In this document: positions 14,324-44,422 of the stretch, piece by piece
How positions within the stretch are numbered: position 1 is the first letter of the stretch
Layout: each line of letters opens with the position of its first letter
Origin: a virus
Taxonomy: Duplodnaviria > Heunggongvirae > Uroviricota > Caudoviricetes
Virus record (IMG/VR): IMGVR_UViG_3300002835_000086
Strand: one strand, 5' to 3'
Length of the DNA stretch: 64,000 nt
The notes under the pieces: model-generated
What the model saw: only the letters and a program-made list of their open reading frames with translations
What the model was told of the DNA's origin: nothing
Database searches by the model: none
Made by a program: the position numbers and the translations under genes

Positions 14324-14611
14324 ATGGCCGACAGGAATTTTTATATGAGAAGAGTATTGACCAAAATTGTAAAAAATATGGTTAGTAAAAATCCTGCATT
14401 CAAAAATATTCGTTCAGTTGAAATACAATTCTTACTTAAATCTCCTGTTAGAAGCGCAATGTGTGATTGGGTTTATGGTCTTACTATCAAGACATATAAC
14501 GATGATGTTAACCAACCTCAAATAATTTCTCAAATAAAAGAAAGAATTGATTCTGTTACATCACAACTAACAAAAGACACTTTCTGTCTCACCGACTATT
14601 ACTTCGAGTAG
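14324..14611 (+). CDS. hypothetical protein
   Basis: 95-aa plus-strand ORF with an upstream promoter motif. Confidence 0.4.
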   Translation: MADRNFYMRRVLTKIVKNMVSKNPAFKNIRSVEIQFLLKSPVRSAMCDWVYGLTIKTYNDDVNQPQIISQIKERIDSVTSQLTKDTFCLTDYYFE

Positions 14612-15726
14612 TCGTATTTACGAAAAATCCCATCTACCGTATGTAACGCTTGAGCAACCACTTGGTGCATATCATAATAAGCATAGGTCCCAAGTCTACC
14701 CCCAAATATGTATTTAGATTCAGACTCTGTCAATGATTTATATTTTTCATAAATCTCAACATTTTTACCGTCTCTGATTGGGTAATATGGTTCGTTCTCA
14801 CCAGTATACTCACAAGAGTATTCCTTACTGATATAAGTACCTTTTTGATTCTTAGGGTCAAACCATTTATGTTCTAATATTCGAGTATACTTAGTATCAG
14901 AATCAGTAAAATTCATTACAGGGTTTCCTTGGAAGTTGTCAACTTCTAATTGGTAATTCTCCCATCTAAGACTACGATATTCCAATCGACCAAATTCGTA
15001 ATCGTAAAACTTATCAATTGGTCCTGTGTAAATTATCTTATCAGATAAAGACTCAAGGATATCTCTATTCTCAAAAAAATCAAATTCAGTCAGTACTTCA
15101 ATACCTGATAGTAGTTTTTCAAAAATTTGGGTATAACCTCCGTCAGGAATTCCTTGGTACTTGTCATTGAAATAATTGTTATTCCAAGTAAATCTAACAG
15201 GTAATCTTTTAATAATGGATGGTGGTAGTTCAGAACATTTCTTATCCCATTGTTTCTCAGTATAACCTTTAATCAACTTTTCATATATGTCAGTCCCTAC
15301 CATTGAAAGAGCTTGTTCTTCCAAATTAGTGATAGGTCCCTTATATTTTTGTTCATCAATCATATACTGTGCCTTTTCAGGTGTGTTAACACCCCACAGT
15401 TGATTGAATGTCCACATATTGAAAGGTAATGAGTAAATCTCACCCTTATAGTTAGCCAAAGGTGAATTAACAAACTGATTAAAAGTTGCAAATCTGTTTA
15501 CGTAGTTCCAAACTCTTTCATCATTAGTATGGAATATGTGAGCACCATACTTGTGAACGTGTATACCGTCTATATTTTCAGTATAACAGTTTCCACCGAT
15601 ATGATTTCTTTTTTCAACAACTAATACGTTGAATTTCTTACTTAGTTCGTGGGCGCAGATTGCTCCAAAGAGACCTGCCCCCACGATTACAAAGTCATAA
15701 TGTCTATAGGAAGTCAAAAACGACAC
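14599..15726 (-). CDS. glf: UDP-galactopyranose mutase (makes UDP-galactofuranose)
   Basis: N-terminal FAD-binding fold DFVIVGAGLFGAICAHEL; the 375-aa length and overall sequence pattern are those of Glf. Confidence 0.8.
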   Translation of the reverse strand: MSFLTSYRHYDFVIVGAGLFGAICAHELSKKFNVLVVEKRNHIGGNCYTENIDGIHVHKYGAHIFHTNDERVWNYVNRFATFNQFVNSPLANYKGEIYSLPFNMWTFNQLWGVNTPEKAQYMIDEQKYKGPITNLEEQALSMVGTDIYEKLIKGYTEKQWDKKCSELPPSIIKRLPVRFTWNNNYFNDKYQGIPDGGYTQIFEKLLSGIEVLTEFDFFENRDILESLSDKIIYTGPIDKFYDYEFGRLEYRSLRWENYQLEVDNFQGNPVMNFTDSDTKYTRILEHKWFDPKNQKGTYISKEYSCEYTGENEPYYPIRDGKNVEIYEKYKSLTESESKYIFGGRLGTYAYYDMHQVVAQALHTVDGIFRKYDYSK

Positions 15727-16861
15727 TGTCAGGAGATAATACAGGTTTATTAATCTTGTTCTCTAATCTTTCTTTGAACTCATACAAGAAGTTAGATGAA
15801 TTAGTATAACATCTATCCTCAATCAAGAAACACAAATTAGGATATGGGTTTTCTCTACCTTCATTAATCATTTGTTCAACAACCTCAAGAGCTTCTTTGT
15901 TCCTTTGTCTTTTCTCATAAAAGAATGCCAAATACATCAAGTGTTCATTTCTTGTTGGAGAGAACGGTCCTGCAGATTTGTAGTGTTCTTCCGCTTTATC
16001 ATACTCCCCTCTAAAGTTATATGCTTCACCCAAAAGTATAAATGTTAGATATGACATCTCATCTAATCTTGCAGGTTTACCAGTATTAAACCAGTTGTGA
16101 TTAAGTGCTAAAAACTTATTAAAGTAGAAAATCGCTCTACGAGCATATTCGTCTGAGTGGTCCTTTCCAAATGCAAGTTCATCAGGATTTCCATAACAAT
16201 CAGCATAACTCTTACCAACATACCAAAGATGATACATATCCTCATTGATGGTGTTTCCAACAACTTTGTCAATTTCTAATTCCAAAGCATCTCTCAAAAA
16301 CTTTCTTGGTGCAAACCAAGTCTGACCATCATTTGTGATTAAGTGTCTAAATCCAAAAGGTAGAACCATTCTTTGGAAATTTTCACCGACTTCAGGTAAG
16401 TGAATTGTTTCGTGTCTTTTATCGTGTTGAAAAAACCAAGGTCTTTTTGCATTCCATAACCAAGTTCTGTAATACTTTGTACCCATTGCCTGAGCTGTAA
16501 TGTTGAATGAATCAATTGAAGTGTCTTCCAATACAGTCCAATCAAAGTCCTCATCAACAATTAGTTGTTCATCAGCATCCATTCTCAGAATCCAATCACA
16601 TCCGTGGTCAGCCTTCAAACATTCCTGTAAGGTATGGTCTCTATTCCATCCTGGATATTGCCATTCAATCTCATACAGGAATCCAGGAATCCCTTTTTCT
16701 TTGAAGTAGTTTCTTATAATGTCTTGTGTTCCGTCAGTAGACCCATTGTCCTGTATAACCCAATAATCAATATATTGGAAACAGGAGTCTAACATTCTTG
16801 TGATAGTTCTGGCCTCATTAGCCACCATCGCGTTTAAGCAAATTTTGGTTTTTTTATTCAT
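15704..16861 (-). CDS. family 2 glycosyltransferase with C-terminal TPR-like region
   Basis: GT-A N-terminus (CLNAMVANEARTI...IQDNGSTDGT) and an ILRMDADEQL DxD motif. Confidence 0.65.
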   Translation of the reverse strand: MNKKTKICLNAMVANEARTITRMLDSCFQYIDYWVIQDNGSTDGTQDIIRNYFKEKGIPGFLYEIEWQYPGWNRDHTLQECLKADHGCDWILRMDADEQLIVDEDFDWTVLEDTSIDSFNITAQAMGTKYYRTWLWNAKRPWFFQHDKRHETIHLPEVGENFQRMVLPFGFRHLITNDGQTWFAPRKFLRDALELEIDKVVGNTINEDMYHLWYVGKSYADCYGNPDELAFGKDHSDEYARRAIFYFNKFLALNHNWFNTGKPARLDEMSYLTFILLGEAYNFRGEYDKAEEHYKSAGPFSPTRNEHLMYLAFFYEKRQRNKEALEVVEQMINEGRENPYPNLCFLIEDRCYTNSSNFLYEFKERLENKINKPVLSPDSVVFDFL

Positions 16862-18101
16862 AAATGTAATTCATTACTTGTTCTTGTTTATAGTATTTTT
16901 TGATTGGGACACTGTTTTGGAACTTTTGTGAGTGTTGTGTAATCTCATCCCAATTCCAATCAAAATAACCCATTTCTTCAATTCTGTCGTGTATTCTTTT
17001 ATCATAGAAGTCCCTGATTAATCTGGCCCTACGATTAATATCTGTTGCATTATTATCAACTGTTGAGTTGTTATTGTTGTATTGTAGATATAACACCTTC
17101 TTTACGTGAATCATCTTGGTTTCTAAAAATGTACGAATAAGAATCTCCAAGTCATCAGCAACAGGTGTTAATTTATTGTGTCCTGAAATATTATGATAAA
17201 CACTTCTCTCCCACATTCTAGCGTGGTTTGGCATTGTGATATTGAATCTAATTGTGAGTGGGTTTACATCAGGGTACCAATGAGCAAGTCTATCAACACC
17301 GTCAACATTTACCCAACTGTGTCCAGCATACCCAAAGTCAAAATAGTTATCGTGACGAGCATACCAATTACCAGTCCAATCGTGGTCATAAAACTTAGGT
17401 TCACCGTCCTCGTATATCTCTGAACAATCAGTATAAAGAAATCCCGCGTCAGGGTATTTTAATATTGCATCATTAGCGGTTTCAAGACAAGTTGTAACCA
17501 AACAATCATCGTGGTCCAATTCAATCAACCAATCACCATCACCTAACATAGCTGCACGATGTTTAGCCAAACCAATATTACCACCCGATAATGGATAAAT
17601 CCTGTGAGGTTTTACCCGATAGTCTTTCTCCGCAATTTCAGTTATCATCTCCCAAGTTTCAGGGTCAGGCGAATCATCAACCACAACCCATTCCCAATTA
17701 TCAAAGGTTTGGTTGTTTAAAGACTCATAAGTCCTATAAATCCTTTCTCCTGTTTTGTAGGTTGGTGTGAAAATTGTAAATCTTGGTCTAAAATATTCAC
17801 AGTTTCTAAACACAGTCTGACAAACAATTACGTTCGCCAAAATTGCTTCATCAATCGGTTCATCATAGTGAATGTGAAATCTTTTCAAATGATAGTGTGG
17901 GATGTTTACTTCTTCACCAAAACTTATAATTAAGTCAGGTTTATATTTTGTATAATCACCAACGACATCGTTTGTATATGGTAGATTATAAACAACAACA
18001 TCATCAAACAGATGTTCTTCCCAGTATATTTGTGAGATTAAGGTTGTTTCACCTTCCGTACCTAATCCATACACTATTGCTGACGGTTTTTTTGTCTTCA
18101 T
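16854..18101 (-). CDS. family 2 glycosyltransferase with N-terminal extra domain
   Basis: FTIFTPTYKTG ... VVVDDSPD ... LDHDD motifs typical of GT2. Confidence 0.65.
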   Translation of the reverse strand: MKTKKPSAIVYGLGTEGETTLISQIYWEEHLFDDVVVYNLPYTNDVVGDYTKYKPDLIISFGEEVNIPHYHLKRFHIHYDEPIDEAILANVIVCQTVFRNCEYFRPRFTIFTPTYKTGERIYRTYESLNNQTFDNWEWVVVDDSPDPETWEMITEIAEKDYRVKPHRIYPLSGGNIGLAKHRAAMLGDGDWLIELDHDDCLVTTCLETANDAILKYPDAGFLYTDCSEIYEDGEPKFYDHDWTGNWYARHDNYFDFGYAGHSWVNVDGVDRLAHWYPDVNPLTIRFNITMPNHARMWERSVYHNISGHNKLTPVADDLEILIRTFLETKMIHVKKVLYLQYNNNNSTVDNNATDINRRARLIRDFYDKRIHDRIEEMGYFDWNWDEITQHSQKFQNSVPIKKYYKQEQVMNYIYE

Positions 18102-20560: not shown

Positions 20561-20881
20561 TTACTTGGTAACCAAAGCTTCCACTTTGGATTTCATATGT
20601 TCTGACAATGATACCTCACCAACCGTGGGTGTAATCAATGAAGTCAAAACAATTGAATCAACCAAATATTTGTACGGAATGTGAACCAAGAAGTCGGTAC
20701 CATTGAAGAAATCCAAATCTCCTTTGAGTTCCAAACAACCGTGAACCATTTTCAAAAACAACTTAAACTGAATACCGTCAACAAAGGTTTCATTCAAGAG
20801 GGTCCCGAACTTCTCGTTCTCAATCCTAATATTGTATGTAAAATTGATTTTCATACCACAAATATAGAAATAACTTTTCAT
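20561..20881 (-). CDS. hypothetical protein (start trimmed to MKSYFY)
   Basis: The tracked ORF 20561..20968 runs through the terminator hairpin of the upstream RNA; an internal Met after the hairpin is the more plausible start. Confidence 0.35.
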   Translation of the reverse strand: MKSYFYICGMKINFTYNIRIENEKFGTLLNETFVDGIQFKLFLKMVHGCLELKGDLDFFNGTDFLVHIPYKYLVDSIVLTSLITPTVGEVSLSEHMKSKVEALVTK

Positions 20882-20883
20882 AT

Positions 20884-20918
20884 AAACAAAAAAACCCGAA
20901 GATTTTTTTCTTCGGGTT
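20884..20918 (-). terminator. rho-independent terminator ending the ncRNA
   Basis: Minus strand reads cccgaagaaaaaaatcttcggg followed by ttttttt. Confidence 0.7.
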
Positions 20919-21805
20919 CTGGCACTTAGGTTGAGAATACACCTTCGATTAAGAATCTTTAGGGACATTATTGTTTCTTCCCGTTTCCACTACCTTTTGA
21001 GTAGTAATTCTTAGTGACGGTTCCTTAGGGGTACCATTCCTTGAGTCGTGCGGTTACTCTCTTTGTACTTGTTACTCTCCGAGGTTGCCACCCCAGTGAA
21101 TCCTTGCGGGATTAGAGAACTTTCTCAAGAATCATTTGGGTCTTGGGAACCCATAATGGCAATGAACATCTCATTACTATGTAGTCACCTTTCGCCTACG
21201 ACTGACAGACACTTTTCCTTCGTCTTTTAGTATTTGCATACTTCAAAATGCAAAGTTGTTGGTCTGTGGATGGTGAAAGTAGCGGTCTGCCAACCAGACA
21301 AGCCATCTTTTGAACGACTCGATACTGAACTACTCTCTGAGATATCCCTACCTCGATACTTCAAGAAATCTTCATAATTAAAATCTTGGTAGATTCTAAC
21401 TAAGGTTACCAACAGCACCACCTGTACGATAACATGACTTTCGTCTTTAAGACACCTCTGATATTGAATCCCGTGATTGTAAAGTTGGATGACTTTACTT
21501 CTCACAACAATTCTACGAGTTATTCTTATTGTTCTTCCGAACTCAACTCAACGACCCACATCGCTGAGTCATCATTCCATTTTGTCTACAGTGTCACCCT
21601 CGACTACTCAGGAACAATGATATCCCGCTTGCCTACTCGAGCTCTAAGAACCGAAGTTCAAAGAACCGCAGTCTCCGTTAACCTTCGGAGACCACTTTAT
21701 CCCACTTTCGTGGTTTATTTATTGACCATAGGCGGCCAATTATCTTATTTACTAACCTGTTGGTTAGAAGGATAATCAAATATGTAAAAGAACGTGTTTC
21801 GTTAA
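20884..21805 (-). ncRNA. candidate large structured non-coding RNA of about 0.9 kb (GOLLD/ROOL-class ornate RNA or other large ribozyme-like RNA)
   Basis: About 920 nt with no credible ORF on either strand and GC clearly above flanking DNA. Many short stem-loops carry GNRA or UUCG loops, for example CCAC-GAAA-GTGG, GAAC-TTCG-GTTC and GTCTCCG-AAGGTTAA-CGGAGAC. It begins just downstream of a TTG...TAACTTTG promoter next to the tRNA and ends at a strong terminator. Confidence 0.55.
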
Positions 21806-21811
21806 TTGTTT

Positions 21812-21844
21812 CACAAAGTTAAGAAGATTATTTTAATCTGTCAA
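21812..21844 (-). promoter_or_regulatory. Bacteroidetes-type promoter (TTGACA ... TAACTTTG) for the ncRNA
   Basis: Minus strand reads TTGACAGATTAAAATAATCTTCTTAACTTTGTG. The TAnnTTTG -7 box is preceded by a TTG at the appropriate distance. Confidence 0.4.
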
Positions 21845-21867
21845 GCACTTTGTAAAAGTTTTTTTTG

Positions 21868-21941
21868 TTGCGGGAGTCGGACTCGAACCGACGGCCTCAA
21901 GGTTATGAGCCTTGCGAGCTACCAACTGCTACCACCCCGCG
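21868..21941 (-). tRNA. tRNA-Met(CAU) with initiator (fMet) features
   Basis: Minus strand: CGCGGGGTGGTAGCAGTTGGTAGCTCGCAAGGCTCATAACCTTGAGGCCGTCGGTTCGAGTCCGACTCCCGCAA. The cloverleaf has anticodon stem CAAGG/CCTTG with loop CTCATAA (anticodon CAT), T-arm GTCGG-TTCGAGT-CCGAC and a 7-bp acceptor stem with a C1/A72 mismatch. It is near-identical at both ends to E. coli initiator tRNA (CGCGGGG...CCCCCGCAACCA). CCA is not encoded. There is one extra nucleotide in the D stem. Confidence 0.85.
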
Positions 21942-21963
21942 ATATATTTTAAAGAACGTGATT

Positions 21964-22014
21964 CGAAAAAAAATCCCAAAACTTATATCCTCTCGAACAC
22001 TCATTTTGGGATTT
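21964..22014 (-). terminator. rho-independent terminator (11-bp stem aaatcccaaaa / ttttgggattt)
   Basis: Long inverted repeat followed by a T-run on the minus strand, in the 3' region of the Nudix gene and upstream of the tRNA. Confidence 0.5.
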
Positions 22015-22171
22015 GGGGTTTGAGGATTCTACTCCTCTTCTTCCGAGTGTCTCACAAACTTACGAACAAATTTTGGACTTGTCAAATTGTTTATGAAACT
22101 TTTTTTGGGGGTATTATCTACCTTTCGGTAGAGTTTTATAAATATATGCTAAAATTGGAAAAAACCAAGTC

Positions 22172-22591
22172 TTACAGTATATTCATTAACAATTTATTTA
22201 ATTTTTCTCCTGTTTCAAGGTTTTTTACTTGTTTTTTGGTAAAATAACCACATTCGGTGTGTTCCTCACCGTCTTTGGCACTCTCCAAATCAGGTATAAG
22301 TTCCGTATCGCTATTGTATTCATATAGATACATTAGTCCCTTGAAGTGTTTACCATCACGCGTAAATCTTGGTAACATACCAGTGAACTTTAAGTTATCA
22401 GGATTCAAATCTAAATCAGTTTCTTCTTTAAATTCTCTAACAGCTGCCACCCTTGTCTCTTCCCCCTCTTCAATTTTTCCCGCAGGAACAGACCACATAC
22501 CAGGGAAACTACCCTTCTTATTTCTCTTACATAGTAAGCATTTGTCACCAACTTTGACTAGTACACCGACGTATCTTTTGTAATCATTCAT
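22172..22591 (-). CDS. Nudix hydrolase
   Basis: Nudix box GKIEEGEETRVAAVREFKEETDL (Gx5Ex7REUxEExGU). Confidence 0.8.
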   Translation of the reverse strand: MNDYKRYVGVLVKVGDKCLLCKRNKKGSFPGMWSVPAGKIEEGEETRVAAVREFKEETDLDLNPDNLKFTGMLPRFTRDGKHFKGLMYLYEYNSDTELIPDLESAKDGEEHTECGYFTKKQVKNLETGEKLNKLLMNIL

Positions 22592-22595
22592 ATTT

Positions 22596-22607
22596 ATAGA
22601 TATCTAT
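22596..22607. promoter_or_regulatory. 12-bp perfect palindrome ATAGATATCTAT between divergent Nudix and DUF192 genes
   Basis: It lies in the 14-bp gap between the two divergent start codons and overlaps the ATG at 22606; operator-like. Confidence 0.35.
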
Positions 22608-22956
22608 GAGAGTAAAAATAGGTGAAAATATATTCAATGTGAAGATTAGACACGACAATAAAGGTCGTGCTATGGGTATGATGGGTCGTAAATTTACTGA
22701 CGAGTATAACGGTATGTTATTCTTTATGGATGAAGACTCAAGTTGTTTTTGGATGAAGAACTGCGTCATTCCTCTTGATATCATATTCATTGATAATAGA
22801 GTAATAACTAAGATACACCACGACTGTCCTCCTTGTAAAGAAGATGACTGTCCAAGTTATTGTGGAAAGGGTGGAATGATTTTAGAAATTATGGGTGGTT
22901 CTGCAAAAGAACTCGATATCAAAAAAGGTGATGAGATTAAGATTCTTGTTGACTAG
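22606..22956 (+). CDS. DUF192 (COG1430) family protein
   Basis: GMLFFMDEDSSCFWMKNCVIPLDIIFID ... YCGKGGMILEI ... KGDEIKI matches the conserved DUF192 core. Confidence 0.65.
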   Translation: MRVKIGENIFNVKIRHDNKGRAMGMMGRKFTDEYNGMLFFMDEDSSCFWMKNCVIPLDIIFIDNRVITKIHHDCPPCKEDDCPSYCGKGGMILEIMGGSAKELDIKKGDEIKILVD

Positions 22957-28229: not shown

Positions 28230-29393
28230 TTAATCGTTATAAATTGAACCACTTTTATTTTCAGACTCTTCGAATTGATGTTGTTCCATAATATCTTTAA
28301 GTGGTGATTTTTGAGTATCAACTTTAGTATTCATATTATGAATAATCTTATCAAGAGTTAATGCAAAGTCCAGAGTTTCGGATATGATACCAACAATTTT
28401 ATATGGGTCACCATTTGATGCCGGTCTACGGTCTTCAACATAACCCTTCCATTCTTTTGATGTAGACAATGGAACTCTGATTGATGCACCTCGGTCAGCA
28501 ACCCCCCAACTAAACTTGTCAATAGATTGGGTTTCGTGTTTACCAGTCAAACGAAGATTGTTATCAGAACCGTAATTGTTAATGTGTAACTGATGACGTG
28601 AATCAAAGGCGTTAAAGATGTTTTTGAAGTATTCATCACCACCTTCATTTCTCATCTTGTCATTTGAGAAGTTACAGTGTAATCCTGAACCATTCCAATC
28701 ACCCATCACAGGTTTAGGGTGGAATTCAATCTTAAAACCATAGTCCTCAGACATTTGTTGTAAAATGTATCTCGACATCCACAAATCATCACCGGCCTTT
28801 AATTTACCTTTGGAGAATACCTGGTACTCCCACTGACCCAATAAGACCTCGGCGTTTGTACCTGTAATTTCAATACCTGCCAAGATACAATTTTCCATAT
28901 GAGTATCCACAAATTTTCTACCGTTAACTTGTCCGTTACCTACACCACAATAGTATTTTCCTTGTGGTTCAGGATATCCATTCTCAGGGAAACCCAAAGG
29001 TCTACCATCTTTCATAATGGTATACTCTTGTTCAAAACCAAACCAAAGGTCCTCTTCTTCTTCCCCAACAAGACTTCTTGTATTTGATACGTGTGGAGTC
29101 CCATCGGGATTCATAACCTCACACAACACCAAGAAAGACCATAGACCACCTTCGTTAAGTGAGTTGTGATAAACTCTAACAGGTTTCAAAATACAATCAG
29201 AAAAATGTCCGTCAGCTTGTTGTGTTGATGAACCATCAAAACTCCACTCAGGGCAATCCTTCAGTGTTATAATATCCCCATATGGAATATTCTGAAGACC
29301 AGTCTCTTCTTTTTCAATCACCTTAACCTTACTTCTAAGATTAGGTTCTGGCTGATACCCATCCAACCACACATATTCTAATTTAACTTTCAT
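28230..29393 (-). CDS. glutamine synthetase type II (eukaryote-like GSII) homologue
   Basis: N-terminal KVKLEYVWLDG, GPYYC-like KYYCGVGNGQVNGRKF and NRGASIR-like DRGASIRVP motifs; at 387 aa it is the size of GSII. Confidence 0.8.
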   Translation of the reverse strand: MKVKLEYVWLDGYQPEPNLRSKVKVIEKEETGLQNIPYGDIITLKDCPEWSFDGSSTQQADGHFSDCILKPVRVYHNSLNEGGLWSFLVLCEVMNPDGTPHVSNTRSLVGEEEEDLWFGFEQEYTIMKDGRPLGFPENGYPEPQGKYYCGVGNGQVNGRKFVDTHMENCILAGIEITGTNAEVLLGQWEYQVFSKGKLKAGDDLWMSRYILQQMSEDYGFKIEFHPKPVMGDWNGSGLHCNFSNDKMRNEGGDEYFKNIFNAFDSRHQLHINNYGSDNNLRLTGKHETQSIDKFSWGVADRGASIRVPLSTSKEWKGYVEDRRPASNGDPYKIVGIISETLDFALTLDKIIHNMNTKVDTQKSPLKDIMEQHQFEESENKSGSIYND

Positions 29394-33121: not shown

Positions 33122-34144
33122 GTGATGACAGGGAAATTACAAAGATTAATCGACGATGTTAATAATGGTAAATTTGATATTATCAAAGATTTTTTTGGTG
33201 ATATGGAAACTTTTTTGGACTATCTTGGTAAAAAAGGTTTGATACACGAATTAGACCTTATTAACAACGAAGAAGAATTCGAATATGAAGTTAACAAAAT
33301 AGCCCTCGCAATTAAAGAACATAATCCCGAAAAATTTAGAGAATATGTTTTATCTTCATTAAGTGATGTTACTTATGAAAATGGTGAATACTATGTGACT
33401 TTGAATGATAAAAGTAGACTCGCGTATCTTTTTTGTGATGATAGAAGAAATGGTATGTCTCAATCAACAATATCAGAGATACTAGATGGTGAATGGGATT
33501 TTGATTTTTGGGATACTACCGATAATGTTTATAGGGATGTTATTCAAGAACTAAATAAGGATAATCTTACTTATTTATCAAAAAAAATAAGTAACGAATT
33601 ATCTGACGTTAAGGTAGAACCTGAAACAGAATTGTTAGAAGAAATTGCCGAGGAACAAGGTCATCCTGAATATGTAACCTTAACCCCCGAGTTGATTCAC
33701 GACAGAATATTCAATGATGAGGATTCAACAGAAAGTATTTTGAATGAAACCGAAAACATTAAATCAGATTTACACTCATTACATAACAGAGCATATGCAA
33801 ATGCTTATGAAGATGAGGTGTATAGTGGTATAATGGATGAACTTGAAACATTTTTTGATATGCGCCATTCTGATTGGATAACAGTTCCAAGTAGTGTAAA
33901 CCCAAACAAATCTTATACCTATTTCAAAGTTAAAATAAATAATTTTGATTCAGAGATTTCCGATTACCTTAATAACGCGAAGAATCATAATGAACCATTA
34001 AGTAATTATGGTGACTATCTTAGTATTTTGAGTGAAAATATTAGTTATGGTAGTGCCAATTGTTTGGTATATTACACGCCTGATTATGCGGATTGGCCAA
34101 AAACAAAAGAAAATATTAACGAACTTTTTGGTGACTATTTTTAA
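33122..34144 (+). CDS. hypothetical acidic protein
   Basis: 340-aa plus-strand ORF, convergent with the first collagen-like gene. Confidence 0.5.
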
Positions 34145-37100
34145 ATAATCCCCTTTAGTTTAGCTTTATCCAAAACTTTTTTAGCTCTCTCTTCAAGAGA
34201 TGTTATTCTAACCTCTTGTTCTTTTAACGCTTCAATGTTAACGGCAATCATTTCTTTATAATTCATTGTTAACACTTTACCTTCAGTATAAATAACTTCA
34301 GGAACATAAGGCAAAACTTCTTGAGCAATAAATCCAATAGCTTTTTTGTCATTAGAACTATATTCTTTACCTCTCCATTTAAATGTGACACCTCTAATAC
34401 TTAATATCTTATTTAGAGCATCACCGATAGGTTTAACATCTTTTTTCAGTCTTTCATCTGAAGGACCTGTTGGTCCTTGTGGACCTTGAGCTCCTTGTGC
34501 TCCGAATGTTGAACTAGCACCTCCTTGAGCCCCTGGTGCTCCTTGTGCCCCTGTTGGACCTGGTGTTGCAGAACCTTGAGCACCTGTTGGTCCTTTAAGA
34601 CCTGTAGGTCCTTGTGCACCGACGGCTCCCTCAAAACCTTGTGAACCTTGAGCTCCTTGAGCCCCTGTTGCACCTTGTGCACCTTGTGGTCCATTAGGAG
34701 ACGTTGGCCCTTGAGCCCCTTGAGCTCCTTGAGCTCCAATAGCACCTGAATTTCCTTGAGCGCCTTGAGCACCTTGAGCGCCGGCTGTACCTGAACCTTG
34801 AGCACCTTGAGGTCCTGTTGGTCCTGTTGCACCTTGAGGTCCTGTTGGTCCTGTTGCACCTTGAGCACCTTGAAATCCTTGACCCCCTGTAGGTCCTACG
34901 GCTCCTTGTGAACCTTGAGCCCCTTGAGGTCCTGTTGGTCCTGTTGCACCTTGAGCTCCTTGAGCTCCAACAGGTCCTTGAGCACCTGTGGCTCCTTGGA
35001 ATCCCTGCTGACCATTAGGTCCTATTCCACCTACGTCCCCTTGAGCACCTTGCGCTCCTTGGAATCCTTGTCCTCCTGTTGCTCCTTGAGACCCTTGAGC
35101 ACCTGTTCCTCCTTGAGCTCCCTGAAAACCTTGTCCTCCTTGCGCCCCTTGTGGACCTTGAGCTCCTGTGGCACCTTGAGCACCTTGAGCTCCCTGCCCA
35201 CCTTGCGCTCCTTGTGGACCTATTGCTCCTTGGAAACCTTGTGCTCCTTGAAAACCTTGTCCTCCTTGAGCCCCTTGAGTTCCTGTTGCTCCTTGAGCAC
35301 CTTGAGCCCCTTGTGCTCCCTGTCCTCCTGTTGCGCCTTGAGCTCCTTGTGCTCCTTGTCCTCCTGTTGCTCCTTGGACTCCTTGTCCACCTGTTGCTCC
35401 TTGCGCACCTTGGTTACCAACAGCACCTTGAGCTCCTTGGAAACCTTGAGCCCCCTGACCTCCTTGTGCACCTTGTACTCCAACAGCACCTTGAGCCCCT
35501 TGTGCTCCTTGGAAACCTTGTCCTCCTTGAGCACCTTGAGTACCTGATATACCTACAGAACCTTGAGAACCTTGAGCCCCTTGTCCTCCTTGAGCACCTT
35601 GAGTTCCTGATACACCTTGAGCTCCTTGAGCCCCTTGGAAACCTTGACCTCCTTGAGCACCTTGAGTTCCTGTTGTACCTTGAGCCCCTTGAGCTCCTTG
35701 AAAACCTTGTCCTCCTTGAGCTCCTTGGGTTCCTGTTGCTCCTTGAGCTCCTTGAGCTCCTTGAGCTCCTTGGAAACCTTGAGCACCTTGGGTTCCTGTT
35801 GCACCTTGAGCCCCTTGAGCTCCTTGGAAACCTTGACCTCCTTGAGCCCCTTGGGTTCCTGTCGCTCCTTGTGCACCTTGAGCTCCTTGTGCTCCCTGTC
35901 CACCCTGAGCACCCTGAGTTGCTGTCGCTCCTTGCGCTCCTTGAGCTCCTTGAGCTCCTTGACCACCTTGAGCACCTTGGTTACCAACTGCCCCTTGTGA
36001 ACCTTGAGCCCCTTGTGCTCCTTGTCCACCTTGGGCTCCCTGATTACCTTTAGCCCCTTGAGCTCCTTGCGCCCCTTGGGCTCCTTGACCACCTTGAGCA
36101 CCTTGGTTACCAACTGCCCCTTGTGAACCTTGAGCCCCTTGCGCTCCTTGTCCACCTTGCGCTCCTTGTCCACCTTGAGCACCTTGAGCCCCTTGTGCTC
36201 CTTGAGCACCTTGTCCTCCTTGAGCACCTTGTGTTCCCGTTGCACCTTGAGCACCTTGAGCTCCTTGGAAACCTTGTCCACCTTGAGCACCCTGTGTTCC
36301 TGTTGCTCCTTGAGCCCCTTGTGCTCCTTGGGCTCCTTGTCCACCTTGAGCACCCTGTGTTCCTGTTGCACCTTGAGCACCTTGTGCTCCTTGGGCTCCT
36401 TGTCCACCTTGGGCACCTTGGTTACCCTTTCCACCTTGAGCACCTTGTGCTCCTTGGGCTCCTTGTCCACCTTGAGCACCCTGTGTTCCTGTTGCACCTT
36501 GAGCACCTTGTGCTCCTTGGGCTCCTTGTCCACCTTGGGCACCTTGGTTACCCTTTCCACCTTGAGCACCTTGTGCTCCTTGGGCCCCTTGTCCACCTTG
36601 AGCACCCTGATTACCTGTCGCACCCTGAGCCCCTTGAGCTCCTTGAGCTCCCTGTCCACCTTGTGCACCTTGGTTACCAACCGCTCCTTGTGAACCTTGA
36701 GCTCCTTGAGCTCCTTGTCCTCCTTGGGCGCCTTGGTTACCAACCGCTCCTTGTGAACCTTGAGCTCCTTGAGCACCTTGTCCACCTTGAGCACCTTGAT
36801 TACCTTTTCCACCTTGAGCGCCTTGAGCTCCTTGAGCTCCTTGTCCTCCTTGGGCACCTTGGTTACCAACCGCTCCTTGTGAACCTTGAGCTCCTTGAGC
36901 TCCTTGTCCACCTTGAGCGCCTTGATTACCTTTTCCACCTTGGGCGCCTTGAGCACCTTGAGCACCTTGTCCTCCTTGAGCCCCTTGGTTACCTGTTGCC
37001 CCTTGAGCTCCTTGTGCGCCTTGTGAACCTTGCCCTCCTGTTGCTCCTTGGGAACCTTGAGCTCCTTGGGCTCCTTGACTACCAACCGCTCCTTGAGCAC

Positions 37101-37425
37101 CTTGGTTACCAGTATTACCCTGAGCACCTTGTCCTCCTTGGGCACCTTGATTACCTTGAGCGCCTTGTGGTCCAGCATTTACATTACCTTTCCATCCGGT
37201 AGAGTCTATTATTAATCCGTAATTGTTTGTAACTGTATTAGCACTTAAATTTGTATTTTGTACTTGGAATATAGGTGCTGTCTTGGCAATTTTTAGATAT
37301 GTTGTTGTTTGATTTACAACATAATTCAATGTAGAACTAGAATATACCAAATCACTTCGAGTATTCCCCGAATCATAAAATTGTATTGTTATACTTGCAG
37401 GTACTATTATTATATTCTCAGCCAC
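34141..37425 (-). CDS. collagen-like (Gly-X-Y) fibre protein with C-terminal tail-fibre intramolecular-chaperone (peptidase S74) domain
   Basis: About 300 uninterrupted G-X-Y triplets ([12 protein letters not shown]...). A ~85-aa N-terminal domain is shared with the two paralogues. The C-terminus, [22 protein letters not shown]...IGFIAQEV, matches the S-D-x-R-L-K autocleavage site and chaperone fold of phage tail-fibre/tailspike C-terminal domains. Confidence 0.85.
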
Positions 37426-40400
37426 GTAATTTTTCTTCTAATTCAGTTAATGATGTTTTAAGGACATCCATTCTTTTTTGATTTTCTTTTACAAAAGATA
37501 CTCCAAGAGTAACAAGTAGTTCATACTGTAAAGATTTATAACCAAACTTATCTTCCCAAACAATTTCAGGAAAATATTTTTCAACTTGTTGGGCGATAAA
37601 ACCTATACTTCGTTTTTTAAGTAAATACTTTTCATTGTCTTTATACAATGAAAGTTGTGGTATATTTTCAACCCAATCAAAAGATACACCATTCATATTA
37701 ACAACATCAATAGCTCTATCAAATTTCTTGATGTTTTCTTTCAATCTTCTATCTGAAGGTGGCCCTTGAGGTCCTTGAGCACCTTGTGCTCCTTGTGGTC
37801 CCGTTTTACCAGCATTACCTTGAGCACCTTGAGCACCTTGTGGTCCTGTAACACTAGCACCTTGAGCTCCTTGAGAACCAGTACCTCCTGCAGGTCCTGT
37901 TGCACCTTGAGCTCCTTGGACTCCTTGTGGACCTGTCCCACCTGTAACAGCTCCTTGAGCGCCTTGTGCTCCTTGTGCCCCTGCAGCTCCTTTTCCTCCT
38001 TGAGCACCTTGTGCTCCTGTGGAACCCTGAGTTCCGGCCTTTCCTGTTGCACCTGTAGCACCTTTTGGTCCCGATGGTCCTTGAGCTCCTGTTGGTCCTT
38101 GAGGTCCTCTTGACCCTTGTACACCTTGTCCTCCTGTCTGACCTGCAGCACCTTGAGCCCCCTGTGTCGCACCCGCAGGTCCTTTTGTTCCTCCCGCACC
38201 TTGAGCACCTGTAGGACCTGGACCTCCTGTAGGACCTGTCGCTCCTTGAGACCCTTGAGAACCTTGAGCTCCAGCGGGTCCTTGAGCACCTTGTGTAACA
38301 CTCGGATTCCCTTGTGGTCCTTGTGAACCTGTTGCTCCTGTGGCACCCTGAGCTCCTTGGGTACCTCCTTGAGCACCTGTGGCTCCTTGTGGGCCTTGAG
38401 GTCCTTTTGCTCCTTGAGCTCCTTGAGGACCTCCTTGAGCCCCTATCGGACCTTGGGCTCCTTGAGCTCCTGTAGCACCTGTTGCACCTTGAGTACCTCC
38501 TGTAGCACCTTGGAATCCCTGAGGTCCTGTAGCACCTGTAGCACCCTGAGCCCCTTGAGGTCCTCCTTGTGCACCAACAGGTCCTTGAGCACCTGTAGCA
38601 CCTGTAGCACCTGGAGCCCCTTGCGGAGTACCTTGTGGTCCTTGAGCACCTTGAGCTCCTGTTGGTCCTGTAGAGCCTGTTGCTCCTTGGACCGCTCCTT
38701 GAGCACCTTGATTACCAACAGCACCTGTTTGTCCAGTCGCACCTTGTGCCCCTTGAGCACCTTGAGGTCCTCCTGGATTTCCCTGAGCACCTTGGGCTCC
38801 TTGTCCACCTTGAGCACCCTGTGCACCTGTTGGTCCTCCCTGTGCACCTGTTGGTCCTTGAGCACCTTGGGCTCCTTGAGCACCTTGTCCTCCTTGTACA
38901 CCTCCTTGAGAACCTGTTGGTCCTTGAGCTCCTGTCGCACCTGTGGCACCTGTCGCTCCTTGCGTTCCTCCTTGAGCACCTGTTGGTCCTTGAGCCCCTG
39001 TTGCACCTGTGGCTCCTGTAGCCCCTTGAGGTCCTCCTTGTGCACCAACAGGTCCTTGAGCTCCTGTAGCTCCTGTGGCTCCCGTCGCACCCTGAACTCC
39101 ACCTTGAGCACCTGTTGGTCCTTGAGCTCCTGTAGCTCCTGTGGCCCCTGTTGCACCCTGAACTCCACCTTGAGCACCTGTAGGTCCTTGTGCACCTGTT
39201 GTTCCATTAGCACCCGTTGCCCCCTGAACTCCACCTTGAGCACCTGTTGGCCCTTGTGCACCTGTTGTTCCATTAGCACCTTGAGCCCCTTGAGGTCCTC
39301 CTTGTGCACCTGTTGGTCCTTGGGCACCTGTTGTACCTTGAGCACCTTGAGCTCCTTGAGAAGCTCCTTGTGCTCCTTGTGAACCAACGGCTCCTTGAGC
39401 ACCTTGTGCTCCCTGATTTCCCTGAACTCCACCTTGTGCTCCTGTAGGTCCTTGGGCACCTGTTGTACCTTGAGCACCTTGAGCCCCTTGAGAAGCCCCT
39501 TGAGCTCCTTGTGAACCAACGGCTCCTTGTGCACCCTGTGCTCCCTGATTTCCCTGAACTCCACCTTGTGCTCCTGTAGGTCCTTGTGCACCTGTTGTAC
39601 CAGCGGCACCTGTTGCCCCCTGAACTCCACCTTGAGCACCTGTAGGTCCTTGTGCTCCTGTGGCACCTGTCGCACCTGTTGCCCCTTGGACACCTCCTTG
39701 AGCTCCCGTACTACCTTGAGCTCCTTGAGCACCTGTCGTACCCTGAGCACCCTGAGAAGCACCTTGTGCACCTTGTGAACCAACGGCTCCTTGAGCACCT
39801 TGTGCTCCCTGATTTCCTTGGACACCACCTTGAGCTCCCGTAGGTCCTTGGGCACCTGTCGTACCTTGAGCACCTTGAGCACCTTGTGATGCACCTTGAG
39901 CTCCTTGTGAACCAACGGCTCCTTGAGCACCTTGTGCTCCCTGATTTCCTTGGACACCACCTTGAGCACCTGTTGTCCCTTGAGCACCTTGAGCTCCTGT
40001 CGCCCCTGTCGCTCCTTGCGTTCCTCCTTGAGCGCCCGTACTACCTTGGGCACCTTGGGCACCTGTGGCTCCTGTCGCTCCTTGTGTTCCTCCTTGAGCA
40101 CCTGTACTACCTTGAGCACCTTGTGCCCCTGTCGTACCTTGAGCACCTTGTGAACCTCCTTGAGCACCTTGTGAACCAACGGCTCCCTGAGCACCTTGGG
40201 CTCCTTGTCCTCCTTGTGTCCCACCTTGAGCACCTGTACTACCTTGAGCACCTTGAGCACCTGTCGTACCTTGAGCACCTTGTGAACCTCCTTGAGCTCC
40301 TTGTGAACCAACGGCTCCTTGAGCACCTTGTGCTCCCTGATTTCCTTGGACACCACCTTGAGCACCTGCAATACCTTGAGCACCTTGTGCCCCTGTTGTT

Positions 40401-40840
40401 CCTTGCGCCCCTTGAGACGCTCCTTGAGCACCTTGTGCTCCTACTGCTCCTTGAGCACCAGTACTACCTTGTGCTCCTTGAGCTCCTGTACTACCACCCC
40501 CACCTTGAGCTCCCGTTGTTCCTTGTGCCCCAACATTTCCTTGAGCTCCTTGAGCACCTTTAATAGTTGTTTGTGGTCCAATCCATACACCGGCATTATT
40601 AATCATATTTTGACCACCAACCCATAAACCTGATGGTGAACTTGATATTGTAACACCTGTAGTTGTTATGTCATTATTACTGAAAACTACTAATGATGGA
40701 CTTGTTGTTGCAGAAAATTTGACATCACCCGGTGCAACCATATTAATTTGGATACTATCCGCAGCAGACGCCCCCTCGTATACTATATGAGGCGATGAGT
40801 TTCCTGTAGTTCCACTTGGATATATTATTACGTCTGCCAT
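37418..40840 (-). CDS. collagen-like fibre protein 2 with periodic G-X-Y-Z interruptions and C-terminal S74 chaperone domain
   Basis: About 310 triplets. One-residue insertions (GASQG, GGVQG, GGTQG, GGPQG) recur roughly every 7 triplets through most of the helix. The C-terminus reads [29 protein letters not shown]...[16 protein letters not shown]. Confidence 0.85.
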
Positions 40841-40843
40841 ATA

Positions 40844-43800
40844 TTAATTTCTTTCAACCTTTTCTTCTAAATTTGTTAATAGAGAATCCAAGTCATCAAT
40901 AAATACTTGTTGCTCTTTTATGGCTTCTACTAAATAAGCGTTAAGTGAGGTATAGTTTAAACTATAATAACCGCCACCCCTTAATTCAATTATATCTGGT
41001 ATTACACTTCTAACTTCTTGTGCAATAAAACCAAACGAGTGTAGTTTACCATCTCGTTTCATTGCCTCATAGTTGGGGTCTAATTCGTTCCAATCAAATT
41101 CAACAGGATTTAATTGTAAAACACTTTCTAACGAGTTTTCAATAGTAGTAATTTCTTGTTTTAAACTAATATCTGAAGGACAAGTATTAGGAACACCAAT
41201 AATTAAACAACCTCCTGTGTCTAGGTCGTAATAAAGTGATGATAAGTCATACCATACGGGAGCAGGTAAAGGAGTTACACAACTAAGATTTGCACAGTCA
41301 GTCGCATTTTCAAACACAGATGTGTTGTTAGTCCAAGTAGTAATATCGTCTGGCGAGTATATGTCCCCATAAAATCCGCGGTTTAATGAACAAGCACTAC
41401 CCGGGTCACCCGCATAATAACCTGAATATTGAAAACAAGATGCTGATGGTGGTCCTGCCGGTCCTGGCGCTCCAGGAGCACCCTGAGCACCTTGTGGTCC
41501 CGTATCACCTTGAGCTCCCGTAGCACCTGTTAGTCCGTCGGCACCTGCAGGTCCTGGTGCTCCTTGAGCACCTTGTGTTAACCCTTGTGCACCTTGTGGT
41601 CCTTGAGCGCCTTGTGCACCTTGTGGTCCTTTTGCACCTGTAGGTCCTGGTGCTCCTTGTGCACCTAATGGACCGGCACCTCTAAGTTCCCCTATTCCCC
41701 CTTGAGCCCCCTGAGCACCTGATGGTACAATTGGTGTAGGTCCTTGAGCACCTTGTGCACCTTGTCCTCCACCTGCTCCTTGAGCTCCTTGGAATCCAAG
41801 AGGTCCTTGAGCACCTTGAGTAGCACCTGTTGGTCCTTGAGCCCCTGTAGCACCTTGTGGTCCAGGAAGTCCAGCAATTCCTTGTGTTCCAACATTTCCT
41901 TGAGCACCTGTAGGTCCGGGAGAACCTTGAGCACCTGTTGCACCGATATTTCCAATAGGACCAGGACCTGTTCCTTGAGCTCCTTGTGGTCCTTGAACAC
42001 CAGGAAATCCTGTGTTTCCTTGTGCACCTGTGGCACCTGTTGCACCTGTTGGTCCAACATCTCCTTGTGAACCTTGAAATCCAAAAGTACCGGTACCACC
42101 ACCAGCACCTGTATTTCCAACATCACCTTGTGCACCTGAAAAACCTGTGGCACCTTGAGCTCCTTGAGAACCTGTAGGCCCAACCGGACCTGTTGCTCCA
42201 CCCGCTCCTTGAGAACCTTGAGCTCCTGTAGCACCAGTATTTCCAACATTACCTTGTGAACCTTGAGCTCCTTGAGCCCCTTGTGGTCCTCCTCCTCCCA
42301 CAGGACCCGCAAAACCTGGAAATCCTGTAGAACCTTGAGAACCTTGAGCTCCTTGAGCCCCTTGTGGTCCAACGGCCCCTTGAGAACCCTGAGCTCCTTG
42401 AGCTCCTTGAGCACCTATTGTACCTGAATTACCTGTTGGCCCAAAGACTCCTACCGTTCCTTGAGCTCCTTGTGCTCCTTGTGGTCCTCCTGAACCTTGT
42501 GGACCTCGAGCCCCTTGTGAACCCTGAGCACCTTGTGCTCCTTGTGCACCCACATTACCTGTAGGTCCAACGGCTCCTTGTGAACCCTGAGCACCTTGTG
42601 CTCCTTGTGCACCTTGGTTACCTGTAGGTCCAACGGCTCCTTGTGAACCCTGAGCTCCTTGGGCTCCTTGCGCACCTTGGTTACCTGTAGGTCCAACGGC
42701 TCCTTGTGAACCTTGAGCTCCTTGTGCTCCTTGTGGTCCTCCTGAACCTTGCGGTCCAACGGCTCCTTGTGAACCTTGTGCTCCTTGTGCTCCTTGTGGT
42801 CCTCCTGAACCTTGCGGTCCAACGGCTCCTTGTGAACCCTGAGCACCTTGTGCTCCTTGTGCACCCACATTACCTGTAGGTCCAACGGCTCCTTGTGAAC
42901 CCTGAGCACCTTGTGCTCCTTGTGCACCTTGGTTACCTGTAGGTCCAACGGCTCCTTGTGAACCTGTATTACCTTGAGCTCCTTGGTTACCGGTATTTCC
43001 TTGGGCTCCTGTATGTCCTGTTGAACCTTGTGCTCCTTGAGCTCCTGTTGCACCTCCATTACCTGTTGGTCCAACCGCTCCTTGGAAACCTGTGTTACCT
43101 TGTGCTCCTTGATTACCTGTGTTTCCTTGTGCACCTGTATGTCCTGTTGAGCCCTGAGCACCTTGTGCACCTGTTGCCCCACCATTACCTGTAGGCCCTA
43201 CATTACCTTGTGAACCTTGAGCCCCTTGTGCCCCTTGAGCCCCTTGAGCCCCTTGTGGTCCTACATTACCTTGTGAACCTTGTGCTCCTTGTGCTCCTTG
43301 TGGTCCTGTTGAACCTGTTGGTCCGACATTACCCTGAGCTCCCTGATTACCTTGAGCACCTGTTGGCCCCACGTTTCCTTGTGCACCTGTGTGTCCTGTT
43401 GAACCCTGAGCACCTTGTGCTCCTGTAGCTCCCGCATTACCTGTTGGTCCTACGTTACCCTGAGAACCTTGATTTCCTTGTGCACCTGTATTACCAGTAT
43501 TACCTTGAGCACCTGTATGTCCTGTTGAACCCTGAGCGCCTTGTGCTCCTGTCGCACCTCCGTTACCTGTTGGTCCGACATTACCCTGAGCGCCCTGATT
43601 ACCTTGTGAACCTTGTGACCCTGTTGCACCTGTTGGTCCGACATTACCTTGTGCTCCCTGATTACCTTGTGAACCTTGTGACCCTGTCGCTCCTGTTGGT
43701 CCGACATTACCCTGAGCACCTTGATTACCTTGAGAACCTTGAGCTCCCACATTACCTTGTGCACCAGGATGTCCTGTTGAACCCTGAGCTCCTTGAGCAC

Positions 43801-44422
43801 CTGTCGCACCTCCGTTACCTGTTGGTCCGACATTACCCTGAGCACCTTGATTACCTTGAGAACCTTGAGCTCCCACATTACCTTGTGCGCCAGGATGTCC
43901 TGTTGAACCCTGAGCTCCTTGTGCACCTGTCGCTCCTCCGTTACCTGTTGGTCCGACATTACCCTGAGCGCCCTGATTACCCTGAGCACCTGTTGGTCCC
44001 ACGTTTCCTTGTGCACCAGGATGTCCTTGAGAACCTTGAGCATTTGCTGAACCTTGAGCTCCTTGATTACCCTTTCCACCTTGTGAACCTTGTGAACCCT
44101 GAGCACCCGTATTTCCAATGGCTCCTTGAGCTCCTTGATTACCTTGGAATCCTGTTATATTTGTTCCAGGTCCTAACCAAGCACCTGTACCATTTAATAC
44201 TTGAATTCCTCCAATAGTTAGATTATTAATGATATTAATATCATCATACGCTTGGATACCACCCGATGACATTAATAATGTAGAACCCCACTTTATAGAA
44301 GTACCAGCACCATAAGGTCTGACCTCTAACCTCAAAGTTCCCGTATTTTCAAAATCAATATAGGGAATCCTTCCGGGATTCGGGACTAAATTACCAGGTA
44401 CAATTGTTATATTTTTTGCCAT
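40844..44422 (-). CDS. collagen-like fibre protein 3 with Cys-rich distal domain and C-terminal S74 chaperone domain
   Basis: About 280 triplets, then a ~110-aa Cys-rich non-collagen domain ([11 protein letters not shown]...CANLSCVTP...[12 protein letters not shown]), then [10 protein letters not shown]...FGFIAQEV. Confidence 0.85.

Follow-up and report, generated by a model that had tools for sequence, protein, structure and literature searches.

Sequence and structural conservation identify a GOLLD RNA of the env-38 type in an uncultured phage

Introduction

The window analysed here is a 64,000-nt stretch of DNA from an uncultured virus of the Caudoviricetes (IMG/VR record IMGVR_UViG_3300002835_000086). 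Genes for presumed tail fibres with Peptidase_S74, DUF3310, an SbcC-like protein, an N6/N4 DNA methylase and sugar-modifying enzymes mark it as phage DNA. Between positions 20,884 and 21,941, on the minus strand, a tRNA-Met gene is followed by a putative promoter, a conserved RNA of 814 nt and a hairpin terminator; genes for a DHH-like protein, a DUF192 protein and a NUDIX hydrolase lie upstream, and a small gene lies downstream. The original prediction, made from the DNA letters and their open reading frames (ORFs), had described this region as ORF-free, raised in GC content and dense in stem-loops, with its own promoter and terminator beside an initiator-like tRNA. It had proposed a large structured RNA, naming the GOLLD and ROOL classes. 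GOLLD RNAs were described in 2009, and their cage structures were solved by two groups in 2025. Here we identify the RNA as a GOLLD of the env-38 type, define its extent and fold, and compare its putative quaternary contacts with those of the solved structures.

Results

At the gathering score, an Rfam 15 scan (cmscan) of the whole window yielded two matches, the tRNA and GOLLD (RF02032). The GOLLD match scores 307.5 bits (E = 4e-87), twice the gathering score of 150, and spans model positions 1–416 of 416, so it is not truncated. RF02032 models the conserved 3' half of GOLLD only; the 5' half of the RNA lies outside the model and is common to a subset of relatives, including env-38. A three-way alignment with two megaphage loci, followed by a profile and alignments of 71 loci, delimited the conserved RNA to 814 nt (Table 1). 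Compared with 4227 Rfam families, the segment 20400–22300 matched only GOLLD and tRNA at E ≤ 1, barring a chance-level DapZ match on the opposite strand. ROOL, group I and II introns, RNase P and tmRNA gave no match in this segment even at E ≤ 1, and ARAGORN found no tmRNA. Of the two classes originally named, GOLLD is thus borne out and ROOL drops out.

From the tRNA to the next conserved gene, the ORFs are only 43–113 amino acids (aa) long, and no frame in the region has a credible Pfam or PHROG homologue, in line with the predicted lack of coding. Public gene callers leave the GOLLD region empty or place only fragments there. The raised GC content is real relative to the immediate flanks (0.40–0.42 versus 0.33–0.37), but it is modest, and the segment at 18.2–19.4 kb is equally GC-rich.

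Searching the region against GenBank phages with blastn returned, besides tRNA matches, only ~21410–21737, in two uncultured megaphages of ~640 kb (LR745206.1 and LR756502.1). Both carry a full-length Rfam GOLLD (287 and 275 bits) directly 3' of the matched segment and have full-length homologues of both halves of the RNA. A gapped 22-base pattern, built from two invariant motifs of the 5' domain, retrieved 69 IMG/VR contigs. It replaced an exact 15-nt pattern (CAGGTGGTGCTGTTG), whose IMG/VR matches were mostly chance (10 real among the first 120 loci of the matches listed). With an nhmmer profile, 71 loci were found to carry the RNA, 54 of them at full length. Removal of sequences more than 95% identical left 33, including the window and env-38, and the window RNA is 68–77% identical to all others in this set. 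Eight relatives tested in Rfam scored 272–327 bits, so the window copy is a typical one. The locus (1221 nt) recurs with 100% identity in three public metagenome assemblies and with 99.1% identity in a fourth, where the core differs by two substitutions only, one at an unpaired site and one turning an A-U pair into G-U. Samples that contain the identical contig include JGI 3300001282 and ENA ERZ27271754. Among 185,579 species genomes, the sole match for this GOLLD subtype is an 11.9-kb contig (CAZGIL010000023.1, our locus L182) in a metagenome-assembled genome labelled Candidatus Woesearchaeota. This is most likely a mis-binned phage contig, and it was not used for host inference.

The 814-nt RNA folds at −248.8 kcal/mol, against −207.8 ± 8.0 kcal/mol for dinucleotide shuffles (z = −5.15), which agrees with the predicted density of stem-loops. 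In the 33-sequence alignment (A3), RNAalifold placed 198 nested pairs, distributed over both halves in 37 helices. Double-sided compensatory change occurs in 148 of these pairs, versus 97 ± 4 in shuffles; standard pairs fill 96.9% of the cells, versus 80.4% in shuffles and 39–46% with the partners slid. None of 500 shuffles reached any observed pairing measure. Helices 1–20, in the 5' domain, covary, and 191 of the 198 consensus pairs are formed by the window's own sequence. Two further covarying helices, not part of the nested model, emerged from a dedicated search and pass the controls; the extra crossing helices and the B4 and B7 contacts described below are 98.5% paired (0 of 500 shuffles). 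The first stem of the 3' domain, which is also the first stem of the Rfam model, crosses the covarying helix that closes the internal linker and thereby forms a pseudoknot. The long-range GGUGAC/GUCACU pairing is missing from the Rfam consensus structure line. Columns 562–564 (helix 23) and the 2-bp helix 33 of the nested RNAalifold model were mis-assigned, covariation favouring crossing helices. As for the stems singled out by the original prediction, CCAC-GAAA-GUGG and GUCUCCG...CGGAGAC are conserved covarying helices, whereas GAAC-UUCG-GUUC is present but sits in a variable extension. The reading of GUAGGCGAAAGGUGACUAC as a local hairpin does not hold, for in the consensus its 5' part pairs with 21054–21044 and its GGUGAC with the distant GUCACU.

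Taken together, a covariance-model match, a conserved 814-nt block, an ornate covarying structure, a phage setting with a tRNA and the non-coding character of the region coincide at this locus. By its sequence, the minus-strand RNA at 20928–21741 is an ordinary, intact and hitherto unannotated GOLLD of the env-38 type, and the comparative evidence establishes its identity and extent as well as its fold.

The env-38 construct was solved by cryo-EM at 3.0 Å as a 14-mer with D7 symmetry (PDB 9MEE; Kretsch et al. 2025, PMC12286853). We took its sequence, originating from JCVI_SCAF_1096627009515/1239-410, from Supplementary Table 4 of that paper. This sequence and the window RNA open with shared 5' motifs and can be aligned over the full length at ~68% identity. 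The two RNAs share the two-domain architecture, the type of 5' domain and the position of the internal linker, and env-38 also lies downstream of a tRNA-Met. The equivalent of the linker in env-38 (nt 497–538) is disordered and points into the cage (PMC12286853). Published P1–P27 labels were assigned one-to-one only where the text allowed.

Under a fitted env-38 numbering, the key residues of all ten inter-subunit bridges (B1–B10) are present in the window RNA (Table 1), and their conservation is clear across the relatives. The 5' domain holds the donor and acceptor residues of B1–B5. The A-minor donors of B1, B3, B6 and B10, the G/C residues of B2, the B5 motifs and the GC of B9 are invariant in 33 of 33 sequences. 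B7 is 100% paired, and both of its pairs covary (GC/UA and GC/CG/AU); one B4 pair covaries as well (UA/CG). In env-38, B8 and B9 join the half-shells through loop GC dinucleotides (PMC12286853). The window RNA differs from env-38 in several receptor-helix base pairs and in P11a, which is a 3-bp hairpin with a GAAA loop, whereas the env-38 arm is ~20 nt longer (A3 columns 341–360). Since the short P11a is common to all 31 relatives, env-38 is the exception.

The other solved GOLLD, from Streptococcus agalactiae, is a 12-mer (PDB 9L0R) without P9, P11a–c and P21b (PMC12990946, a 2026 review), elements on which GOLLD stoichiometry depends (PMC12286853, PMC12990946). It belongs to the same family and shares the conserved 3' domain (P14–P27) with the window RNA; its L14 A-minor and L15/L20 kissing contacts correspond to B6 and B7. 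In contrast, its 5' domain is different and smaller, while that of the window RNA is of the env-38 type. P21b (GGCAA loop, 21088–21084) is present in the window RNA. Given the full set of B1–B10 residues, P21b and the short P11a, a 14-mer is the better guess, and by analogy the RNA would most likely assemble as an env-38-like 14-mer.

The megaphage copies also differ from the window RNA. In them, ~20–40 nt are inserted behind the CUACCAAG motif, L21a has CG in place of GC, and B7 has UC/GA in place of GG/CC; these copies directly adjoin tRNAs, and their flanking genes differ from those of the window. ROOL resembles GOLLD in being a large phage or prophage RNA that lies near tRNA genes and builds an RNA-only cage (6- or 8-mer), with a similar mode of working as far as known; its sequence and fold are unrelated.

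The GOLLD RNA appears to constitute its own transcription unit, with a promoter box, leader, core and terminator recognizable in the sequence. The predicted TTGACA promoter element was located as TTGACA-N17-TAACTT at 21844–21816 (minus strand); a sigma-70 scan prefers an overlapping TTTACA-N18-AATAAT. The sequence TAACTTTG (21821–21814) fits a TAnnTTTG box, the −7 box of Bacteroidota promoters. In 23 of 30 relatives, versus 3.8 expected, this box lies in the 200 nt before GOLLD, a significant excess. Inside the window alone there are 9 matches against 4.9 expected, a number reached by 8 of 100 shuffles; because this enrichment is not significant, the boxes in the window are a weak guide to the host. 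From the promoter type we would guess a host among the Bacteroidota. At the other end, the strong terminator that had been predicted is indeed present, and a terminator-like hairpin with a T-run lies at most 80 nt downstream of GOLLD in 21 of 32 relatives; at megaphage-type loci, tRNAs 11–20 nt after GOLLD take its place. The primary transcript would extend from ~21807 to ~20886, and its putative length of ~0.92 kb agrees with the earlier estimate of ~0.9 kb. Read-through into GOLLD from the upstream tRNA is possible.

Table 1. Coordinates of the GOLLD RNA, its predicted contacts and the neighbouring features in the window
Feature	Position	Strand	Basis or detail
Promoter-like element	21814..21844	-	TTGACA 21844-21839 and TAACTTTG 21821-21814; consensus match
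Putative 5' leader, ~65 nt	21742..21807	-	CGTTCTTT 21794-21787; hairpin CUAACC-AACA-GGUUAG 21767-21752
GOLLD conserved core	20928..21741	-	nhmmer and alignments of 71 loci, covariation, fold z
GOLLD 5' domain, env-38 type (cage cap in solved structure)	21338..21741 (approximate)	-	Alignment to env-38 construct
GOLLD 3' domain	20928..21337	-	cmscan match to RF02032
First 3'-domain stem	21275..21337	-	21337-21329 with 21283-21275; 9 bp, 5 compensatory pairs, 99.7% paired
Variable A-rich internal linker	21212..21274	-	Poorly alignable A3 columns 571-646; closed by covarying helix 21291-21285/21211-21205
Long-range pairing	21013..21189	-	GGUGAC 21189-21184 with GUCACU 21018-21013; 6 bp, 98% paired, GC/CG/AU exchanges
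B1	A21708, A21707	-	GAAA loop; mapped from env-38
B2	G21599-21597, A21594, C21593	-	Mapped from env-38
B3	A21536, A21535	-	Mapped from env-38
B4	21490-21487 with 21347-21344	-	AUCC with GGAU; mapped from env-38
B5	21419-21417 with 21390-21387	-	GGU with ACCA; mapped from env-38
B6	A21311, A21310	-	Mapped from env-38
B7 kissing contact	21218-21217 with 21146-21145	-	GG with CC; mapped via Supplementary Table 2
B8	21107-21106	-	Self-complementary GC, loop L21a; mapped from env-38
B9	21088-21087	-	Self-complementary GC, loop L21b; mapped from env-38
B10	A20998, A20997	-	Mapped from env-38
Intrinsic terminator	20884..20920	-	12-bp hairpin 20920-20891, then U7; -16.8 kcal/mol, z = -4.96
tRNA-Met(CAT)	21867-21941	-	ARAGORN and Rfam; sole ARAGORN tRNA in the whole window
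NUDIX hydrolase	22172-22591	-	Part of conserved block upstream of tRNA-GOLLD
DUF192	22606-22956	+	Part of conserved block upstream of tRNA-GOLLD
DHH-like protein, 472 aa	22937-24355	-	Pfam DHH below threshold; GGH motif near C-terminus
Small gene downstream of GOLLD	20561-20863	-	probably 100 aa; conserved in 25 of 71 loci at 63-66% aa identity

The tRNA-Met gene lies 126 nt upstream of the GOLLD core on the same strand. Bacterial initiator tRNAs combine a 1:72 mismatch with three consecutive G-C pairs at the bottom of the anticodon stem. The window tRNA has the C1×A72 mismatch, but its anticodon stem (AGG/CCU) provides only two bottom G-C pairs. Among 34 distinct upstream tRNA-Met sequences, C1×A72 is found in 27 and a GGG/CCC anticodon stem never. 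A weak D stem and the lack of an encoded CCA are further features that most relatives share. A same-strand tRNA-Met lies upstream at 47 of the 49 loci in the syntenic lineage, but at only 2 of the 11 loci outside it. This linkage is mostly lineage-bound, so shared ancestry can explain most of it and the case for functional coupling is weakened.

A direct repeat of ~24 nt (cgaaWcacGTTCTTTWaMatat) precedes both the GOLLD leader (21775–21798) and the tRNA (21942–21962) on the minus strand. Its GTTCTTT core is found in the spacer between tRNA and GOLLD at 44 of 44 distinct related loci, 17–110 nt before the GOLLD core (related loci with the motif include our L132, L016 and L141), and at 11 of those 44 it also lies upstream of the tRNA. 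With 5 copies in the whole window versus 2.7 expected, it is no general motif, and it may serve in the leader as a signal for processing or regulation.

The head of the cassette, 21965–22085 (minus strand), carries another promoter-like element, TTGACA-N17-TAAGTTTGTGAGAC, which is almost the same as that of GOLLD. Directly behind it comes a structured element of ~80 nt that ends in a long hairpin and U8 (−31 kcal/mol, z −4.0); the tRNA is next. In appearance, the structured element resembles a terminator or attenuator in a leader, or alternatively a small RNA with a terminator. In relatives such as L016 and L141, the GOLLD leaders contain similar GAAGGAGAGG...CCUCUCCUUC hairpins with U-runs. 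Many relatives also have a conserved block, ...ACAACCAGCGCATGACGTGGATAGGTGAC...GGGGAAGTGGG, before tRNA-Met (60–70 nt upstream in L025, L144, L164, L181 and L145), which is missing from the window. The block matches no Rfam family and could be a gene end or another RNA element.

The order methylase, DHH-like, DUF192, NUDIX, tRNA-Met, GOLLD and small ORF is kept at 25–49 of the 71 loci, with the DHH-like/DUF192/NUDIX block just upstream of tRNA-GOLLD at 30–49. The DHH-like protein is conserved at 73–76% identity. Its only full-length homologues in GenBank phages are in the two megaphages that carry this GOLLD subtype, ~300 kb away from the RNA. A 24-kb part of the window, compared with GenBank phages by megablast, returned nothing, and tblastn with the DHH-like protein against the same phages returned only uncultured megaphages; these searches thus gave no cultured phage with the cassette and, by annotation, no host. 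For the small downstream gene, public gene calls give a 135-aa product (20561–20968, minus strand) whose frame takes in the terminator and the 3' end of GOLLD. In relatives, only its last ~94 residues are conserved, and the real start is therefore probably the ATG at 20863.

Elsewhere in the window, 34141–44422 (minus strand) holds three tandem paralogues of 1094–1192 aa with collagen triple-helix repeats and a C-terminal endosialidase-chaperone domain (Peptidase_S74), presumably tail fibres; the large opposite-strand ORFs across this segment are repeat artefacts. Auxiliary-type genes at 14599–15726, 16854–18101 and 28230–29393 (minus strand) encode a UDP-galactopyranose mutase, a family-2 glycosyltransferase and a glutamine-synthetase-like protein. 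A 311-aa protein at 48661–49596 (minus strand) has a weak PHROG match to an anti-termination protein Q-like family (phrog_127, E = 5e-6) and a strong match to a family of unknown function. If Q-like, it could act on the promoter-terminator arrangement upstream of tRNA-GOLLD.

Discussion

We consider it highly probable that the locus encodes an env-38-type GOLLD RNA, transcribed as a unit of its own and, by inference from the solved structures, forming an RNA-only cage. A decayed GOLLD remnant, non-functional and free of selection, might account for the 7 of 198 consensus pairs that are non-canonical in the window sequence and for a P11a shorter than that of env-38. Yet the short P11a is found in all 31 relatives, the bridge residues are all intact, and the Rfam score lies mid-range among the relatives. 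Moreover, identical copies occur in three independent metagenomes, and the 99% variant alters the core only at an unpaired site and in a pair-preserving way, which makes decay very improbable. Slighter still is the chance that the RNA is a structured 5' leader or cis-regulator of the small gene, a conserved same-strand neighbour 65 nt downstream. A strong terminator stands in between, and 21 of 32 relatives have one as well; the distance from GOLLD to the gene varies among relatives from ~100 to more than 3700 nt; and no cis role is needed to explain an RNA of 814 nt from a known autonomous class.

That the RNA belongs to a different or new large class (ROOL, a group I or II intron, RNase P, tmRNA or a novel ribozyme) is suggested by nothing more than the general look of a long structured RNA beside a tRNA. 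Since only GOLLD and tRNA are credible among the Rfam families compared, ARAGORN reports no tmRNA and the 5' half aligns to env-38 GOLLD, we give this explanation hardly any weight. The alternatives to GOLLD raised in the original prediction, namely a new large RNA, a group I-like ribozyme and a 5' leader, are accordingly not supported. Just as remote is the view that the 113-aa (plus) and 92-aa (minus) ORFs are missed protein genes. The latter (21227–21505), inside GOLLD, has a borderline match over 29 residues (E = 0.0018) to phrog_29671 (59 aa, unknown function), a family that may itself consist of spurious ORFs called on phage GOLLD RNAs. Against coding, there is no other Pfam or PHROG support, substitutions in helices are compensatory, indels are not multiples of three, and the public gene callers give nothing or fragments.

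Nothing contradicts the identification as GOLLD, and the remaining limits concern mechanism. Several points nevertheless qualify the fuller picture of an autonomous transcript assembling into a 14-meric cage. The putative promoter is a consensus match only. The relatives were gathered with a pattern from the 5' domain (the B5 motifs), whose invariance is therefore partly built in. The env-38 sequence, derived from the text of a PDF file, has 816 nt versus the published 833 nt, i.e., 17 too few, with local errors; its numbering was fitted rather than read, and 129 of 140 residue identities (Supplementary Tables 1 and 2) are satisfied. Finally, given the much shorter P11a and the differing receptor helices, the subunit number could differ from 14.

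The present comparison enables us to propose a putative model for this GOLLD. Transcription would start from the TAnnTTTG-type promoter (21821–21814), proceed through a leader of ~65 nt and end at the intrinsic terminator (20920–20891). By analogy with the cryo-EM structures, the RNA would fold into two domains and self-assemble without protein into a closed dihedral cage, in which the 5' domains would form the caps and the 3' domains the rings, with the variable linker facing inward. During lytic growth, such a cage might serve as a container or scaffold for translation-related cargo (tRNA, ribosomal particles), a speculation drawn from the literature. Expression of a Lactobacillus prophage GOLLD rises in lytic growth (cited in PMC12286853), and the proposed roles of GOLLD include encapsulating tRNAs, ribosomes or other cargo and an 'inhibited storage' of embedded tRNAs (PMC12286853, PMC12990946). 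Our literature search found no functional study of GOLLD later than 2025.

A bolder proposal is that, in this phage lineage, GOLLD and the initiator-like tRNA-Met form a co-regulated RNA module, in which the cage may store, protect or deliver initiator tRNA or affect translation initiation. The leader motif shared by both genes and the promoter, hairpin and U-run at the cassette head, an arrangement like an antitermination-controlled late unit, led us to this idea, which we regard as unlikely. If true, it would provide the first concrete functional partner for GOLLD.

In summary, as the mere identification of a GOLLD, the finding matters little. What it adds is an unannotated, apparently widespread copy, from an uncultured phage, of exactly the structurally solved subtype, to which structural predictions from env-38, among them the kissing GG/CC pair of B7 and the palindromic GC dinucleotides, should transfer directly. 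It also illustrates that gene calling in these phage genomes passes over about 1 kb or covers it with spurious ORFs. At least 70 natural variants in the lineage can serve covariation tests of the quaternary contacts, and the conserved cassette of DHH-like phosphoesterase, DUF192, NUDIX, initiator-like tRNA and GOLLD, together with the leader motif, provides leads on the regulation and function of this RNA.

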